64,000 bases of DNA, from the IMG/VR virus record IMGVR_UViG_3300042691_019384, positions 44,652 through 108,651 of that record. The stretch is one strand, 5' to 3'. Position numbers and translations under genes: made by a program. Below the pieces are notes generated by a model, which saw only the letters and a program-made list of their open reading frames with translations, did no database searches and was not told the origin of the DNA. Below, one piece after another: positions 56,743 through 62,144 of this stretch. Numbering within the stretch: the first letter of the stretch is position 1; every line of letters begins with the position of its first letter. The DNA is from a virus. Its lineage: Duplodnaviria > Heunggongvirae > Uroviricota > Caudoviricetes.

Positions 56743-57669
56743 ATGAAAATAAGAAATATATTAGAACAATTGAACGGAACAAATATAATAAATGTTCCAA
56801 TAACCAGAGATAATCAAGAATTGATTATAATGGTTGGTATACCTGGTAGCGGTAAAAGCACAAAAGCTAAATCTATAGTTGGTAATGGTATTATCCATTC
56901 AACAGATGATTTAATTGAAGCTACTGGTGATTATAACGAATTCTTTAATAATATGATGGCAAATAAAGATTTTGGACCATTAAGTAATATGCATAAACAA
57001 AATCTTAAAAACGCTATAAAATCTATGAAAGATGGTATTACACCAGTTATAATTGATAATACCAATTTAAGCCCAAGTGAACCAAAACAATATGTTATGG
57101 CTGCATTAGAAATGGGTTACGATGATAAGAACATAAAATTTATTAATATCGGTACTGGTGGATTAACAGCAGAAGAATTGGCCAAAAGAAATACACATAA
57201 TGTGCCTTTAGATAAGATTAAATCAATGATTGATAAATATAAGACACATAACCCAATAACAATTGAAAAAGTGATTAATAGCAAAGATATGGGTAAAAAA
57301 GATGATGTGTTATATTCAGCAGTTGTATTGGATGAAGAATCACATAATAAATTGATTAATATGTTTTCAGATATCATACCTGAAGATTGGAAAGTTTATG
57401 CACATCATATGACAATTCAATTTGGAAAAGGTGTTGAGAATGAAAAAGATTTGGATAAAGAAGTGATATTACAAGGTAATAAATTAGGTATATCAGATAA
57501 AGCAATTGCCATAGAAGTAAGTGGATATGAATCAAAAAAAAATATACCACATATAACTATAGCTATTAGTCCAGATGGTTCACCTAAAATGAGTAATGAT
57601 ATAACTGATTGGGAAAAAATTAAACCAATTAAATTAACTGGCGTGGTTAAAAACATTTTGAAAAAATAA
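56743..57669 (+). CDS. polynucleotide 5'-kinase fused to 2H phosphoesterase (2',3'-cyclic phosphodiesterase-like)
   Basis: N-terminal P-loop MVGIPGSGKSTKAKSI and HSTDD (T4 Pnk-like kinase); C-terminal pair of H-x-T-x motifs (AHHMTIQF and IPHITIAI) typical of the 2H/LigT family. Confidence 0.55.
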   Translation: MKIRNILEQLNGTNIINVPITRDNQELIIMVGIPGSGKSTKAKSIVGNGIIHSTDDLIEATGDYNEFFNNMMANKDFGPLSNMHKQNLKNAIKSMKDGITPVIIDNTNLSPSEPKQYVMAALEMGYDDKNIKFINIGTGGLTAEELAKRNTHNVPLDKIKSMIDKYKTHNPITIEKVINSKDMGKKDDVLYSAVVLDEESHNKLINMFSDIIPEDWKVYAHHMTIQFGKGVENEKDLDKEVILQGNKLGISDKAIAIEVSGYESKKNIPHITIAISPDGSPKMSNDITDWEKIKPIKLTGVVKNILKK

Positions 57670-57707
57670 TTTTGTATTATTAATAAAATTATTAGTACCT
57701 TTGTAGT

Positions 57708-58013
57708 ATGGAAAATAATATGTTAGAACGTAGAGCCGAAATAAGCTCAAAATTATTTGAAATGGGAACTTCTTTATGTAAAGAAAGCCATGAAACTGGT
57801 GATTATTGTGTTAATAAAGCTGGTAGTTTATTAATATTTATCGCTGGTGTTATGTTAGATGAAAAAGATGTCGAAGAATATGGGTTAATTTCATCAATGT
57901 ATGCTGCAAAAAGGATTATGGATGACCTTGAAGAAAAAAACATAAGAATTTCAGAGATACTAAAATATTTTAATAATTTAGATGGCGAAGAACAAAACTT
58001 TAAAGATAATTAA
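57708..58013 (+). CDS. small hypothetical protein
   Basis: 101-aa ORF with own promoter (TAccTTTG at 57696). Confidence 0.35.
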   Translation: MENNMLERRAEISSKLFEMGTSLCKESHETGDYCVNKAGSLLIFIAGVMLDEKDVEEYGLISSMYAAKRIMDDLEEKNIRISEILKYFNNLDGEEQNFKDN

Positions 58014-58019
58014 AATAAA

Positions 58020-59144: not shown

Positions 59145-59386
59145 AAACTATAAAAGAACTTAGAAATATTGGTCTAAAAGTTGAAGAAGCTTGCTCAAGC
59201 GTAAAGTACTTTAAACAATTAAATATTGATTGGGATGTTTTCTTAGAAACAAGAGGTAAGAACTTACAGCGTGATTTTGTTTGGGATTTAAATCAAAAAC
59301 GTGAATTAATATGGTCTGTGTTGATTGGTAGACATATTCCACATATGGCTTTAATAAACACTATAGATGAACTACCCATTGGCTAA
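59141..59386 (+). CDS. uncertain small ORF overlapping the 3' flank of tnpB (possible omega-RNA region instead)
   Basis: 81-aa ORF with ATGA overlap to the rnl stop; region also expected to encode the TnpB guide RNA on the opposite strand. Confidence 0.25.
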   Translation: MKTIKELRNIGLKVEEACSSVKYFKQLNIDWDVFLETRGKNLQRDFVWDLNQKRELIWSVLIGRHIPHMALINTIDELPIG

Positions 59387-60720
59387 AGACCAATGGGTTT
59401 CTTAACAATATTGTTAAGAATTTTAGACGTTTCACCGATTGTGCCAACGGATGTTGGTCTTATTTCATCTCCACGTCTGTAATCGTCAGTTCCTGACGAT
59501 AATATCTTATTTCCTTCTTTAAGGATATTTATGCTTGCGTTTAAATCTCTATCTAATTTAGTATTACATGATGGGCAAACCCATTCTCTAATATTTAATT
59601 TTAAATTTTGATTAATATAACCACAACAATTACATGTTTTACTACTAGGAAAAAACCTATCTATGTTAACTATTTTTTTATCATTCCATTCAGATTTATA
59701 ACGTAACATTGTTACAAATTTTCCCCATGAAACATCTAAAATATGTTTAGATAATTTATGATTTTTAACCATACCCTTAATATTTAAATCTTCCAATACA
59801 ATTAAATCATATTTTTTAATTAAATCTGTGGATATTTTATGTAGATTATCTATTCTAGAATTGGTTATCTTCTTATGAATAGTGGCCACTTTTAATTTTT
59901 GTTTATTATATCTGTTACTACCTTTTATTTTTCTGCTTAAATGTTGTTGATGTTCTTTAAGTTTTTTAGCGTATGTTTTTGTGTATCTATTATTTTTATA
60001 TTTATAACCATCAGATGTTATAACAAACTCTTTAATACCTAAATCAATACCAACAGATTTGTTAGTTTTTGGTAATTTATTATGTTCAGTTTCAACCAAA
60101 ATAGATACAAAATATTCATTTGTTGGTGTTTTTGAAATAGTACATTGTTTAATTAAACCATTAAATTTTCTATCTATAATGACTTTAATAGGGTCTTTAA
60201 ATTTAGGTATAGATAATTCATTTTTATTTAATTTAACAAATTGAGGTATTGTAAAACTATTTTTATCGTGTTTAGATTTAAATTTAGGAAAACCTTTTTT
60301 GAATCTAAAAAAATTCTTATAAGCTGTTTCTAAATTTTTTAATGAATCCTGTAATGATTGTGAATTAATTTCTTTTAACCATGAATAATTATCTTGTTTT
60401 TTTAATTCAGTTAATGATTTAGCGTTATCATAATAATTAATTGAGTTTTTGTTTGTTTCATATTCATGTTTTCTTTCATTTAAAAAATAATTATATATAA
60501 ACCTAATTGAACCAAAGTGTTTATTCAATAAAACAATTTGTTCATTAGTTGGTTTAAGTTTATATTTATATGATTTTAACATTATTTATCAGATTAACTC
60601 TATATATGATAAATATATGATAATATTAAAAAAGACATATTTTAAGAAAAAAAAATATTTATTTGTTTATTTGTTTATTTATTTGTATTTTTGTAGTGCT
60701 TATATCACATAAGCTAAAGA
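59250..60720 (-). mobile_element. IS200/IS605-like element remnant (tnpB only), approximate ends
   Basis: tnpB ORF plus a 3' flank containing hairpin CCATTGG-CTAAAGA-CCAATGG (59373-59393) and a 5' flank with TTTGTTTATT repeats (60652-60690); ends not determined precisely. Confidence 0.4.
59383..60582 (-). CDS. tnpB: IS200/IS605-family TnpB (OrfB) RNA-guided nuclease homolog, no tnpA
   Basis: N-terminal MLKSYKYKLKPTNEQIVLLNKHFGSIRFIYN; RuvC-I SVGIDLGIKEF, RuvC-II IVLEDLNIKGM; zinc finger CNCCGY...CPSCN; RuvC-III DRDLNASINI; all catalytic acidic residues present. Confidence 0.85.
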   Translation of the reverse strand: MLKSYKYKLKPTNEQIVLLNKHFGSIRFIYNYFLNERKHEYETNKNSINYYDNAKSLTELKKQDNYSWLKEINSQSLQDSLKNLETAYKNFFRFKKGFPKFKSKHDKNSFTIPQFVKLNKNELSIPKFKDPIKVIIDRKFNGLIKQCTISKTPTNEYFVSILVETEHNKLPKTNKSVGIDLGIKEFVITSDGYKYKNNRYTKTYAKKLKEHQQHLSRKIKGSNRYNKQKLKVATIHKKITNSRIDNLHKISTDLIKKYDLIVLEDLNIKGMVKNHKLSKHILDVSWGKFVTMLRYKSEWNDKKIVNIDRFFPSSKTCNCCGYINQNLKLNIREWVCPSCNTKLDRDLNASINILKEGNKILSSGTDDYRRGDEIRPTSVGTIGETSKILNNIVKKPIGL

Positions 60721-60872
60721 CTTATGGGTTTTACGCATTCAATATAAAAGAGATTTTCCAAATGAAAATTTTTGGATAGAAGAAATAAATATATCTTAAT
60801 TTTAATCCTATAATAAAAAAAATATTTGCACATTAAAAAACTTTTTAGTAACTTTGTAAAAAAAAAAGAAAT

Positions 60873-62144
60873 ATGATAAAACCAGTTGAAATTGTTGAAG
60901 TAAATAAAATCATTCCTGTATACAAGAATGGTGAAGAGGCTAATAGTATCCAAGTAATCAACTTTAAGTTTAAGAATGGTGATGAATGTGGGTACAATGT
61001 CATTGCACAAAAAGGGTTATATGAAATAGGGTCAAAAGCCTGTTATATTCAACCTGATTATTGCTTATCAGACATTGGATTATTCAATAGTTTTACAATG
61101 CCAGATAATGACCCTAAGAAAAGCAGGTTAGGTAAAAACAATAGGGTTAGGGCAATTAAATTTAATTTCTCATTTGCTGAATCAACAGACCCTATCTATT
61201 CTTTTGGTGTTTTATTACCAAAGAGTGAAGTTGATTCATTTATTGGTAAAGATTCAGATACTGATGATATAACAGAAATTCTTGGTATTACAAAATATGA
61301 AGAACCTGAAACAGCTGGTTCTGGTTTGATTGCTGGTGATTTCCCATCTTTCTTATATAAAACGGATGAAGAAAATTATTCAAACCTTAAATCAAGGGTT
61401 ATGAAGTTATGTGATGGTAACACAGTGTTTGGTGTTACAATTAAACATGATGGTTCATCACACACGACATATTTTAAACTTATTGATGGTGAATATAAGG
61501 TTGGTGTGTGTTCAAGAAGTTTAGAGAAAAAACTTGAACAAAAAGCGATTACAAATTATTTTGATGCTAATAACAACAATTATCATAAATATATTAACCC
61601 AGAAACGAAAGAAAAGGGTTGGTATTGTGATGCGTTAAATGATTTCAGAACAAATGAAGAACTTGATTCATTAACCCCAATTTTTGTTGATGTAAAAGAT
61701 TCTTGGGTTGATTTAGCGTATTCAAGTGGTTTAATTGATAAAGGATTAGAATATTGTAAAACACATGGTTTGGAATTAGCATTTAGAGGTGAAATTTATG
61801 GTCAGGGGTTAAAGGGTTCTGGTAACAAATATAATCCAGATTCTAATAAAAAACAAACACTTAGAATGTTTGGTATTGATAATTTATCTGAAGGTTTTTC
61901 AAAAAGATTAAACTATTCAAGTGAATTTAATCTTGAAACTGTATGTGTCGCTTTAGGTTTGGAATACACAAAACCAGAATTGGTTAAACCATCTTCATAT
62001 GAAGAATTATGTCAGTTTTGTGATTCAATTATTGCAAAAGAAAAAGAACAAGGTAGAGTTATTGAAGGTGTTGTTATTAGGACACATTTTAGTAATGACT
62101 TATCTTGTAAATATATGAACCCAGAATATGATGCTAAGAAATAA
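60873..62144 (+). CDS. second ATP-dependent ligase-like nucleotidyltransferase (RNA ligase family)
   Basis: motif I VTIKHDGSS (KxDG), motif III LAFRGEIYGQG, motif IV VIEGVVIRT, motif V CKYMNPEYDAKK; about 180-aa N-terminal extension. Confidence 0.5.
   Translation: MIKPVEIVEVNKIIPVYKNGEEANSIQVINFKFKNGDECGYNVIAQKGLYEIGSKACYIQPDYCLSDIGLFNSFTMPDNDPKKSRLGKNNRVRAIKFNFSFAESTDPIYSFGVLLPKSEVDSFIGKDSDTDDITEILGITKYEEPETAGSGLIAGDFPSFLYKTDEENYSNLKSRVMKLCDGNTVFGVTIKHDGSSHTTYFKLIDGEYKVGVCSRSLEKKLEQKAITNYFDANNNNYHKYINPETKEKGWYCDALNDFRTNEELDSLTPIFVDVKDSWVDLAYSSGLIDKGLEYCKTHGLELAFRGEIYGQGLKGSGNKYNPDSNKKQTLRMFGIDNLSEGFSKRLNYSSEFNLETVCVALGLEYTKPELVKPSSYEELCQFCDSIIAKEKEQGRVIEGVVIRTHFSNDLSCKYMNPEYDAKK

Follow-up and report, generated by a model that had tools for sequence, protein, structure and literature searches.

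Gene content of the locus

The locus belongs to a very large, uncultured phage with a conserved set of genes predicted to repair broken RNA, and it was analysed within a stretch of 64,000 nucleotides, here called the window. The three open reading frames named in the preliminary description, starting at 56743, 58020 and 60873, were all confirmed at these positions on the plus strand. The features are listed below, the last two lying elsewhere in the window:

56743..57669, plus strand: predicted bifunctional RNA end-healing enzyme, 308 aa, with an N-terminal polynucleotide 5'-kinase and a C-terminal mini 2H cyclic phosphodiesterase
56800..57291, plus strand: kinase domain of this enzyme, ~aa 20-183
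57304..57666, plus strand: mini 2H phosphoesterase domain of this enzyme, aa 188-308, with two H-x-T motifs
57708..58013, plus strand: small conserved protein, 101 aa, between the healing enzyme and Rnl1
58020..59144, plus strand: T4 Rnl1-type ATP-dependent RNA ligase, 374 aa
59383..60582, minus strand: TnpB (IS605-family OrfB) insertion, outside the repair module
60873..62144, plus strand: Rnl5-family (DraRnl/NgrRnl-like) RNA ligase, 423 aa
33325-34755: protein with DUF2828 and DUF7788, a putative Ro60/TROVE relative
41342-41697: tmRNA

The genes for the kinase-2H protein, the ~100-aa protein and Rnl1 form the conserved core of the module and are co-oriented and tightly spaced. Intergenic gaps in the module of 38, 6 and -4 nt suggest co-transcription of its genes, the 101-aa gene lying 38 nt from its upstream and 6 nt from its downstream neighbour. 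In 70 out of 73 IMG/VR viral loci, Rnl1 was found 0.4-6 kb downstream of the kinase-2H gene on the same strand, and homologues of the ~100-aa protein were present in 80 out of 87 related loci.

A kinase fused to a mini 2H phosphoesterase domain

The 56743 protein has 970 homologues, with precomputed PF08302 and PF13671 assignments on 38 of the best 120. An AF2 model of the full-length protein (pLDDT 88.5) had the fungal Trl1 kinase-CPD structure 6u05 as its top Foldseek match, and the best viral structural matches were the ~770-aa Trl1-like 'RNA ligase' proteins of Marseillevirus and CroV.

The earlier proposal of a T4 Pnk-like P-loop kinase was borne out by matches of the N-terminal domain to Pfam AAA_33 (2.3e-10) and to the T4 Pnk structure 1ly1 (7.5e-7, aligned to aa 26-168). 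The P-loop GIPGSGKST occupies aa 32-40 (nt 56836-56862; GSGKST, aa 35-40), and further key residues are D55, the DNTN motif at 105-108 and R149; among 23 homologues, K38, S39, D55, D105-N108 and R149 are invariant. D55 is equivalent to the catalytic D35 of T4 Pnk and R149 to R126, while the counterpart of T4 R38 is I58, an active-site residue that is thus not conserved. Classification as a Pnkp was considered and rejected, because the alignment to T4 Pnkp ends at about residue 168 and the C-terminal domain has a 2H fold; neither structure comparison nor the T4 Pnkp alignment revealed a C-terminal DxDxT (HAD) 3'-phosphatase domain.

The C-terminal domain adopts the bilobed alpha+beta fold of 2H enzymes, in agreement with the domain assignment made from the sequence. 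Its two H-x-T motifs, H222-M-T224 (nt 57406-57414; HHMT, aa 221-224) and H270-I-T272 (nt 57550-57558; HITI, aa 270-273), are invariant among 23 full-length homologues, and across 50 domains sharing at most 50% identity the H-x-T pairs and S284 were the sole invariant columns. The best structural match was the catalytic domain of CNPase, and the closest structural relatives are RNA-end CPDases. PF08302 (tRNA_lig_CPD) was matched in all 15 of 15 family members, with E 4.4e-8 to 5.7e-8 for the best relatives, the domain of the 56743 protein itself scoring 18.9 bits (E 0.0011), below the Pfam gathering cut-off of 23 bits. HMM searches of PDB sequences with the 2H domain reached no 2H structure, so that the histidines are tentatively equated with those of solved 2H enzymes through the structural match and not through an alignment of residues. 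Giant phage proteins also join the mini-2H domain to CCA-adding enzymes, a fusion that links it to the chemistry of tRNA 3' ends. By family precedent, healing by the 56743 protein probably leaves a 2'-phosphate.

The Rnl1-type ligase and its small conserved neighbour

Profile and structure matches, together with the strongly conserved linkage, uphold the previous identification of a T4 Rnl1-like ligase next to the healing enzyme. The 58020 protein matched PF09511 (1.9e-17), phrog_562 (6e-42) and the T4 Rnl1 structure 2c5u (9e-14, aa 45-336), and its residues 32-342 aligned to positions 33-339 of the 373 in TIGR02308 (1.5e-21). The total TIGR02308 score of 77 bits lies below the equivalog cut-off of 242 bits, marking the protein as a divergent Rnl1 member; the L004 orthologue is 54% identical. 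Nucleotidyltransferase motifs I, III, IV and V and the lysine nucleophile are all present, including KCDGS at 93, EGYVIV at 231 and VKLKN at 243. K93 (nt 58296-58298) is the predicted adenylylation lysine, and K93, E159, E231 and K244/K246 align with K99, E159, E227 and K240/K242 of T4 Rnl1. The alignment to T4 Rnl1 extends to residue 336 of 374 and thus into the Rnl1-specific C-terminal domain.

The 101-aa protein encoded between the two enzymes had no significant match in Pfam (sub-threshold matches only, best E 0.0019) or PDB (best E 0.13), no match in NCBIfam and a weak match to the unannotated phrog_37789 in PHROG (E 0.0037). Residues R8, G20, L23, E26, D32, G39 and M64 are invariant in the alignment of its family.

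A second ligase and a TnpB insertion

The locus had been described as a cassette, which is not contiguous: the two ligases are separated by a truncated DUF262-like ORF and by the opposite-strand TnpB gene (OrfB_IS605, Cas12f1-like_TNB and HTH_OrfB_IS605 domains; phrog_506, 3e-135). Similar 20-nt sequences lie on either side of the TnpB insertion, at ~59381 and ~60713, and the TnpB-interrupted arrangement recurs in independent metagenome contigs.

Both KxDG proteins are RNA ligases by profile and structure matches, and not DNA ligases or capping enzymes; like the matches of the kinase domain, theirs far exceed what chance would give. The 60873 protein matched structures of the Naegleria RNA ligase NgrRnl (6e-15; 2e-18 with a profile), phrog_968 across aa 40-421 (5.7e-35) and TIGR02306 (1.6e-14; residues 40-233 on profile positions 27-209 of 341), its 53.5 bits being well below the NCBIfam equivalog cut-off of 151 bits. 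It contains KHDGS at 191, FRGEIYG at 304, EGVVIR at 398 and CKYMN at 412, and the motif I lysine K191 (nt 61443-61445) aligns with Lys170 of NgrRnl. While its identification as an RNA ligase stood, the 180-aa N-terminal extension that had been called novel proved to be the known clade-defining N domain of Rnl5, as judged from TIGR02306 and from NgrRnl, which aligns collinearly from residue 32. This domain (~aa 1-145) is conserved in 26 homologues, and an N-terminal domain ahead of the NTase domain defines the Rnl5 family (PMC4408790). DraRnl of Deinococcus and NgrRnl share this layout without a C-terminal appendage; in the 60873 protein, K413 of motif V lies 10 residues before the C terminus (residue 423). 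In contrast to DraRnl and NgrRnl, the 60873 ligase is phage-encoded, and a lineage-variable insertion of ~55 aa between motifs Ia and III (~aa 220-275, nt 61530-61697) is missing from NgrRnl and from members of the cyanophage PA-SR01 type. As a conserved partner of the module the Rnl5 gene was rejected, since none of the 80 IMG/VR relatives has it within 8 kb, and these often have an unrelated PF09414 ligase in its place; it accompanies the conserved module as an accessory gene solely in this lineage.

RNA-related genes and the search for a 2'-phosphotransferase

Of the RNA-related context claimed for the window, three tRNAs were confirmed, as was a CCA-type nucleotidyltransferase, whose gene is split by a GIY-YIG endonuclease gene. 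Rfam detected the tmRNA at 48.5 bits, just above its gathering score of 47, and ARAGORN did not call it. In addition, a weak tRNA-like match of 102 nt (43185-43286) could carry an insertion.

Nearby ART-fold paralogs (53825-56493) had been put forward as Tpt1-like 2'-phosphotransferase candidates, a suggestion our searches do not support. PF01885 (Tpt1/KptA) had no match in any window ORF of at least 120 aa, the NCBIfam scan gave none either, and Tpt1/KptA was not among the 25 of 44 neighbour-gene families listed for 87 related loci; PARP occurred in only one of 80 loci. Within the 64-kb window we found neither Tpt1/KptA nor another obvious 2'-phosphate remover. The paralogs lie inside a 2.9-kb block that the closest relative lacks, and their homologues are fused to ART-PolyVal (carried by homologues of the 53825 protein), DUF5661 or lysozyme domains. 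The insertion that holds them is specific to this lineage, with kinship to the ARTs of polyvalent proteins and not to Tpt1.

Discussion

What the analysis demonstrates is the identity and fold of the domains, the conservation of their catalytic residues and the linkage of the genes, and a phage-encoded heal-and-seal RNA repair module is the likely, and best, explanation of the locus, in keeping with the three tRNAs, the tmRNA and the CCA-type enzyme elsewhere in the window. For its substrates, the regiochemistry and fate or removal of the 2'-phosphate and a role against host defence, we infer the following scheme. Metal-independent host ribonucleases would cut RNA, most plausibly in tRNA anticodon loops, leaving a 2',3'-cyclic phosphate and a 5'-OH. 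The T4 Pnk-like domain would phosphorylate the 5'-OH, and the CNPase/Trl1-like 2H domain would open the cyclic phosphate to 3'-OH,2'-PO4, as all RNA>p CPDases so far characterised in this clade do. The Rnl1-type ligase would then join the 3'-OH to the 5'-PO4 via Lys93-AMP, while the downstream Rnl5-type ligase, a separate and lineage-specific addition, probably seals nicks in duplex RNA.

Phage sets of 2H, kinase and ATP-dependent ligase have already been assigned to tRNA repair by comparative genomics (PMC7824862, PMC9503650). What is new here is the fused mini-CPDase paired with Rnl1; we found no description or biochemical test of Trl1/CNPase-type end healing paired with a T4-type Rnl1 in the literature. 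The fungal and plant tRNA ligases Trl1/AtRNL, the stand-alone Branchiostoma PNK/CPDase and vertebrate CNPase share with the phage enzyme the order of a P-loop polynucleotide kinase (or kinase-like) domain followed by a 2H phosphodiesterase in one chain, with 5'-phosphorylation and opening of >p to 3'-OH,2'-PO4 as the expected chemistry (PMC1920235, PMC5434554). The phage CPD is a stripped-down core (~120 aa compared with ~210-250 aa), its kinase is nearest to T4 Pnk by sequence, a T4 Rnl1-type ligase encoded by its own gene takes the place of the Trl1 LIG domain, and the module is phage-encoded, with no Tpt1 partner found in the window. With the T4 Pnkp and Rnl1 pathway the module has in common a homologous kinase domain, an Rnl1 that is homologous through most of its C-terminal region, a phage origin and, presumably, the countering of anticodon nucleases. 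However, 3'-end healing would rely on a 2H phosphodiesterase in place of the DxDxT (HAD) phosphatase of T4 Pnkp, so that the end reaching the ligase should bear a 2'-phosphate and not a 2'-OH. A point against the scheme is that T4 Rnl1 belongs to the pathway making 2'-OH ends in the framework of PMC1920235; further such points are the PF08302 score below the cut-off, the I58 in place of T4 R38 and the failure to find a 2'-phosphate remover in the window.

That the module acts in processing RNAs of the phage itself and not in counter-defence, for example in tRNA/tmRNA maturation or in rejoining RNAs cut by phage nucleases or in homing-endonuclease-associated events, is improbable in our view, even if the tRNAs, tmRNA and split CCA enzyme of the window fit such a role, the weak tRNA-like match at 43185-43286 could hold an insertion, and eukaryotic Trl1-type enzymes are tRNA splicing enzymes (PMC1920235). 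Against it, the analysis turned up neither a protein-spliced tRNA intron nor a splicing endonuclease. tRNA introns of bacteria and phages are normally self-splicing group I introns. The enzymology would be identical, so that this explanation differs from counter-defence repair in biological purpose only. It is very improbable that the 2H domain erases immune signals, acting on cyclic oligonucleotides or messengers of the 2'-5' oligoadenylate type as Acb1 or viral 2',5'-phosphodiesterases do, and that the kinase is a nucleotide kinase with no link to RNA ends. Viral 2H phosphodiesterases, anti-CBASS Acb1 among them, match the domain more weakly than CNPase does, and Acb1 proteins are stand-alone and unlinked to kinases or ligases. 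Least probable of all is an action after an NAD-dependent 2'-phosphotransferase, or as a LigT-like 2'-5' ligase/esterase, instead of on RNA 2',3'-cyclic ends, as the window holds no Tpt1/KptA to make Appr>p, PARP was found in only one of 80 loci, and RNA-end CPDases are the nearest structural relatives.

Within the heal-and-seal repair module, a hybrid pathway is conceivable but rather doubtful, in which Trl1/CNPase-type healing would hand a 3'-OH,2'-PO4 end to the Rnl1-type ligase and the junction 2'-phosphate would shield the repaired tRNA; perhaps the 101-aa protein helps in this handover. As the 2'-phosphate blocks the 2'-OH nucleophile, a host metal-independent anticodon nuclease could not re-cut such a tRNA. 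The bacterial Pnkp/Hen1 system likewise pairs a healing kinase/phosphoesterase with a ligase and chemically marks the junction nucleotide at its 2' position. The likeness is conceptual, since the phage module contains neither the Hen1 methyltransferase nor a metallophosphoesterase and its hypothetical mark is a 2'-phosphate. If the hybrid pathway were true, it would not have been foreseen by the classic 'phage versus yeast' dichotomy, and the junction 2'-phosphate would be a feature and not a defect, analogous to 2'-O-methylation by Hen1. Moreover, such phages would then naturally provide bacteria with RNA 2'-phosphates, which could be the long-missing substrate of bacterial KptA/Tpt1.

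Results

A three-gene module conserved across viral loci

The kinase-2H protein, in which an N-terminal T4 Pnk-like kinase is fused to a C-terminal mini 2H cyclic phosphodiesterase (mini-2H), forms a module with a small protein and an Rnl1-type ligase. The window has about 26% G+C and carries nearly all genes on the plus strand, and the region is laid out as follows:

56743-57669, plus strand, kinase-2H, 308 aa
57708-58013, plus strand, small protein, 101 aa
58020-59144, plus strand, Rnl1-type ligase (Rnl1), 374 aa
59141-59386, DUF262/GmrSD_N-like fragment, 81 aa, N-terminal piece of a gene, abutting the TnpB element
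59383-60582, minus strand, TnpB gene of a TnpB-only IS605-family element
60873-62144, plus strand, Rnl5-type ligase (Rnl5), 423 aa

IMG/VR contained 137 viral stretches encoding kinase-2H relatives, of which 80 were kept, and 73 of these extend 3 kb or more downstream. An Rnl1 homologue was located downstream of kinase-2H, on the same strand and at a distance of 0.4-6 kb, in 70 out of the 73 assessable loci, which belong to uncultured large phages. Clustering of all plus-strand ORFs from 87 loci and the window placed the small protein between both enzymes in 80 out of 87 loci, so that it is a partner as faithful as Rnl1. In the window, kinase-2H and the small protein are 38 nt apart, and the small protein and Rnl1 only 6 nt. 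Conserved residues of the small protein are R8, G20, L23, E26, D32, G39 and M64 (invariant), its C-terminal tail is acidic, and Pfam, NCBIfam and PDB gave nothing significant for it, the only PHROG match being weak and to a family that lacks annotation (E 0.0037). It is probably the third component of the module.

The preliminary description had grouped kinase-2H with two RNA ligases as one cassette. The linkage to Rnl1 is borne out by the related loci, whereas that to Rnl5 is not, as an Rnl5-type ligase was found in 0 out of 80 loci and is common only to the closest relative, L006, in which five other genes lie between Rnl5 and Rnl1. The Rnl5 gene is accordingly a lineage-specific neighbour, and the real module consists of kinase-2H, the small protein and Rnl1.

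Neighbours that are frequent in the related loci, though optional, are a Nudix gene directly after kinase-2H (40/80 loci), an ATP-dependent DNA ligase (48/80), an HD_4 protein (28/80) and a PF09414 RNA ligase of 335-347 aa (36/80). The window was searched for homologues of the Nudix, HD_4, DNA ligase and PARP genes that neighbour the module in relatives, and none was found. The 347-aa PF09414 ligase of the type seen at the related locus L004 was considered as an orthologue of the window's Rnl5 and rejected, since BLASTP revealed no similarity. Neighbour genes were also noted at 11146-11781 and 18894-20201 of the related loci L004/L005 and at 1-397 of L006 (neighbour scan A4), and further neighbours in the relatives comprise a PARP-domain protein, NADAR, PTH2 and a Thg1-like gene. 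Altogether, the relatives' gene content suggests a larger, variable module neighbourhood of RNA and NAD metabolism.

Metagenome contigs as large as the 0.2-1 Mb class encode the exact kinase-2H protein and keep the gene order, TnpB included; therefore, the arrangement is real and the phage very large. The TnpB insertion recurs in several independent metagenome contigs, and its position in L006 is occupied by five different genes, where the window has the 81-aa DUF262/GmrSD_N-like fragment and TnpB instead. Similar 20-nt sequences, GCTAAAGAC(C/T)(A/T)ATGGGTTT, flank the TnpB element within 59141-60735, Rfam showed no RNA family at the element, and a search downstream of TnpB for the rest of the truncated DUF262-like gene found none. 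A scan for sigma-70 promoters found more sites in shuffled sequence than in the real one; promoters of another type may serve in the host.

Both halves of the kinase-2H protein

All motifs quoted in the preliminary description for the 56743, 58020 and 60873 proteins are present at the expected positions. The kinase domain of the 56743 protein (approximately aa 20-183) matched Pfam AAA_33 (2.3e-10), the PHROG 'polynucleotide kinase' family (2.5e-14) and the T4 polynucleotide kinase crystal-structure sequence (7.5e-7, aa 26-168 versus T4 3-145). Invariant in 23 full-length homologues are the P-loop residues G37, K38, S39 and T40, D55, the DNTN motif at 105-108 and R149, with D55 corresponding to the T4 general base D35 and R149 to T4 R126; the equivalent of T4 R38 is Ile. 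Because the P-loop, D55, the DNTN motif and R149 are invariant, the kinase looks active, in contrast to CNPase, whose kinase-like domain is degenerate (PMC5434554).

For the C-terminal half, the window's mini-2H matched PF08302 (fungal tRNA ligase CPD) with an E of 0.0011, which is under the curated cut-off, while 15 out of 15 family members tested matched PF08302 (best E 4.4e-8) and 38 among the top 120 kinase-2H homologues carry a precomputed PF08302 call. Taken alone, this sequence evidence is modest. The predicted full-length kinase-2H model had its best PDB match in the Candida Trl1 kinase-CPD structure 6u05, and the best matches among viral models were Trl1-like 'RNA ligase' proteins of about 770 aa from Marseillevirus and CroV. 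Among 50 mini-2H domains with a mutual identity of 50% or less, the sole invariant columns were H222, T224, H270, T272 and S284, the first four being exactly both H-x-T motifs. The earlier assignment of the C-terminal domain to the 2H phosphoesterases is upheld, and the domain was not placed in a non-2H fold. HMM profiles of the C-domain built from 15 (A2) and 50 (A6) sequences retrieved no 2H chains from PDB sequences and gave only chance matches, e.g., Myb, interferon-gamma and L25, so that no residue-by-residue alignment to solved catalytic histidines was obtained.

In a whole-library profile search, the approximately 120-aa mini-2H domain was represented by 1,939 cluster representatives. 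A stand-alone mini-2H protein of about 130 aa is widespread, and the domain also occurs at the ends of giant multidomain proteins of 1,100-2,250 aa (P0129, P0131, P0136 and P0172), together with CCA-adding enzyme domains, a second 2H domain of the Acb1/2_5_RNA_ligase2 type and ART-PolyVal. The fusion of mini-2H with a CCA-adding enzyme in these phage proteins fits a role at tRNA ends.

Two ligases of different families

The 58020 protein matched PF09511 (1.9e-17), phrog_562 (6e-42), TIGR02308 (1.5e-21, aa 32-342) and the T4 Rnl1 structure (9e-14, aa 45-336), and its residues K93, E159, E231 and K244/K246 correspond to T4 K99, E159, E227 and K240/K242. On these alignments it is assigned as a T4 Rnl1 relative, full-length though divergent. 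The 60873 protein matched Naegleria gruberi RNA ligase structures (6e-15 by itself, 2e-18 when a family profile was used) and the DraRnl family of NCBIfam, TIGR02306 'RNA_lig_DRB0094'. Both proteins had been proposed to be RNA ligases, and the matches to Rnl1 (PF09511, TIGR02308) and Rnl5 (TIGR02306, NgrRnl) agree with this. The Rnl5 family is defined by an N-terminal domain before the nucleotidyltransferase domain and the lack of a C-terminal appendage (PMC4408790). Since both features are present in the 60873 protein, in which the TIGR02306 alignment spans residues 40-233 and the C terminus follows 10 residues past motif V, the region formerly described as a novel N-terminal extension of 180 aa is the N domain already known for Rnl5. 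The variable part is rather a stretch of approximately 55 aa inserted between motifs Ia and III, which is absent from NgrRnl and cyanophage-type members.

No Tpt1 candidate in the block of putative ART paralogs

The preliminary description had named nearby ART-fold paralogs as candidates for a Tpt1-like 2'-phosphotransferase, which correspond to the following ORFs:

53825-56493, three ORFs of 528, 161 and 170 aa

None of them matched Pfam, PHROG or NCBIfam, and the 2.9-kb block that contains them is missing in L006, in which the genes on either side lie next to each other. Residues 23-261 of the 528-aa protein, its N-terminal module, share 46% identity with proteins that have ART-PolyVal (PF18760), DUF5661 or lysozyme domains. 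Such fusions are a signature of injected polyvalent effector proteins and not of RNA 2'-phosphotransferases, and the 528-aa protein is likely of the injected effector type rather than an RNA repair factor. Furthermore, no window ORF of at least 120 aa matched PF01885. Considering the absence of PF01885, the fusions of the homologues and the missing block in L006, these ORFs were dismissed as Tpt1 candidates. When 110 proteins representative of the neighbours in related loci were scanned with Pfam, PARP, NADAR, Nudix, PTH2 and HD_4 were among the families listed, and Tpt1 was not among the 25 of 44 families listed.

Other RNA-related genes in the window

A CCA-adding/poly(A) polymerase-type gene is split within 45189-48405, and Rfam detected no group I intron at the split:

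End of a 521-aa ORF whose N-terminal 390-420 aa or so are unexplained, head-domain N-part of the CCA-type gene
46799-47506, GIY-YIG/NUMOD homing endonuclease gene, after the N-part
47491-48405, remainder of the CCA-type enzyme, after the homing endonuclease gene

The tmRNA at 41342-41697 scored just over the Rfam threshold (48.5 versus 47 bits, E 4e-16) and was not called by ARAGORN. A weak tRNA-like match of 102 nt (32.5 bits, 43185-43286) might represent a tRNA that is unusual or interrupted. Context genes (17245-18063, 21376-22215, 32275-32808, 33325-34755, 44267-45154) encode a calcineurin-like phosphoesterase (adjacent to an SF1 helicase gene), two factors of the sigma-70 type, a Nudix hydrolase and a DUF2828+DUF7788 protein, the last being the candidate previously described as Ro60-like.

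Discussion

Two routes of RNA repair are framed as incompatible, and compatibility of healing and sealing sets the choice of pathway: in the 'phage' route T4 Pnkp and Rnl1 generate 2'-OH junctions, and in the 'yeast' route the Trl1 kinase-CPD and LIG generate 2'-PO4 junctions, after which Tpt1 is required (PMC1920235). The module is a hybrid of both, resembling Trl1 and CNPase in its healing architecture (kinase-CPD) and T4 in its Rnl1-type sealing ligase. Because CNPase, Trl1 CPD, plant CPD and E. coli ThpR yield 2'-phosphates on opening 2',3'-cyclic phosphates (PMC4643303, PMC1920235, PMC4201822), we infer that kinase-2H would turn breaks with 5'-OH and cyclic phosphate ends into 5'-PO4 and 3'-OH,2'-PO4 ends, which the Rnl1-type ligase would then seal. 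The module's Rnl1 might accept 2'-PO4 ends, or another factor might strip the phosphate first, with the small protein, KptA of the host and the relatives' HD or Nudix proteins as candidates. Alternatively, the 2'-phosphate may stay at the junction, and it is an attractive idea that it would block re-cleavage by transesterifying nucleases.

Comparative-genomic surveys have described a large-phage RNA-repair arsenal of 2H phosphoesterases, polynucleotide kinases (usually HAD-phosphatase fusions), Rnl1/Rnl2/RtcB ligases, KptA and TROVE (PMC7824862, PMC9503650). That big phages carry 2H/kinase/ligase repair kits is already known from these surveys, so that what is added here is one specific variant that can be tested and no new principle. 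Within the literature searched, which did not cover Burroughs & Aravind 2016 NAR, no phage kinase-2H fusion was found described. Metagenomes contain about a thousand homologues of the fusion protein, and a tblastn search of 50,697 deposited phage genomes recovered the kinase half only, with no record covering at least 80% of the kinase-2H protein; absent from these genomes, the fusion has escaped experiment. A DNA-level search of deposited phages likewise gave no close relative of the region, with TnpB alone matching. Among deposited phage genomes, the mini-2H alone was detectable only in Bacteroides phages (DAC19/20/22, crAss-like; 'hypothetical protein') and unannotated Prevotella Lak records:

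MT074139 (DAC19), 49201-49605
PhiCrAssBcn series
Lak-B phages

Together with the Lak-like similarity of TnpB and the Flavobacterium/Bacteroidales labels of Rnl5 homologues, this hints at a Bacteroidota host.

In conclusion, the module bears on whether Rnl1-type ligases can use 2'-phosphate ends, on whether a 120-aa 2H core is sufficient as a CPDase, in which case it would be the smallest CNPase-like enzyme, on the function of the conserved small partner, and on whether phage repair makes 2'-phosphorylated RNAs for bacterial KptA.
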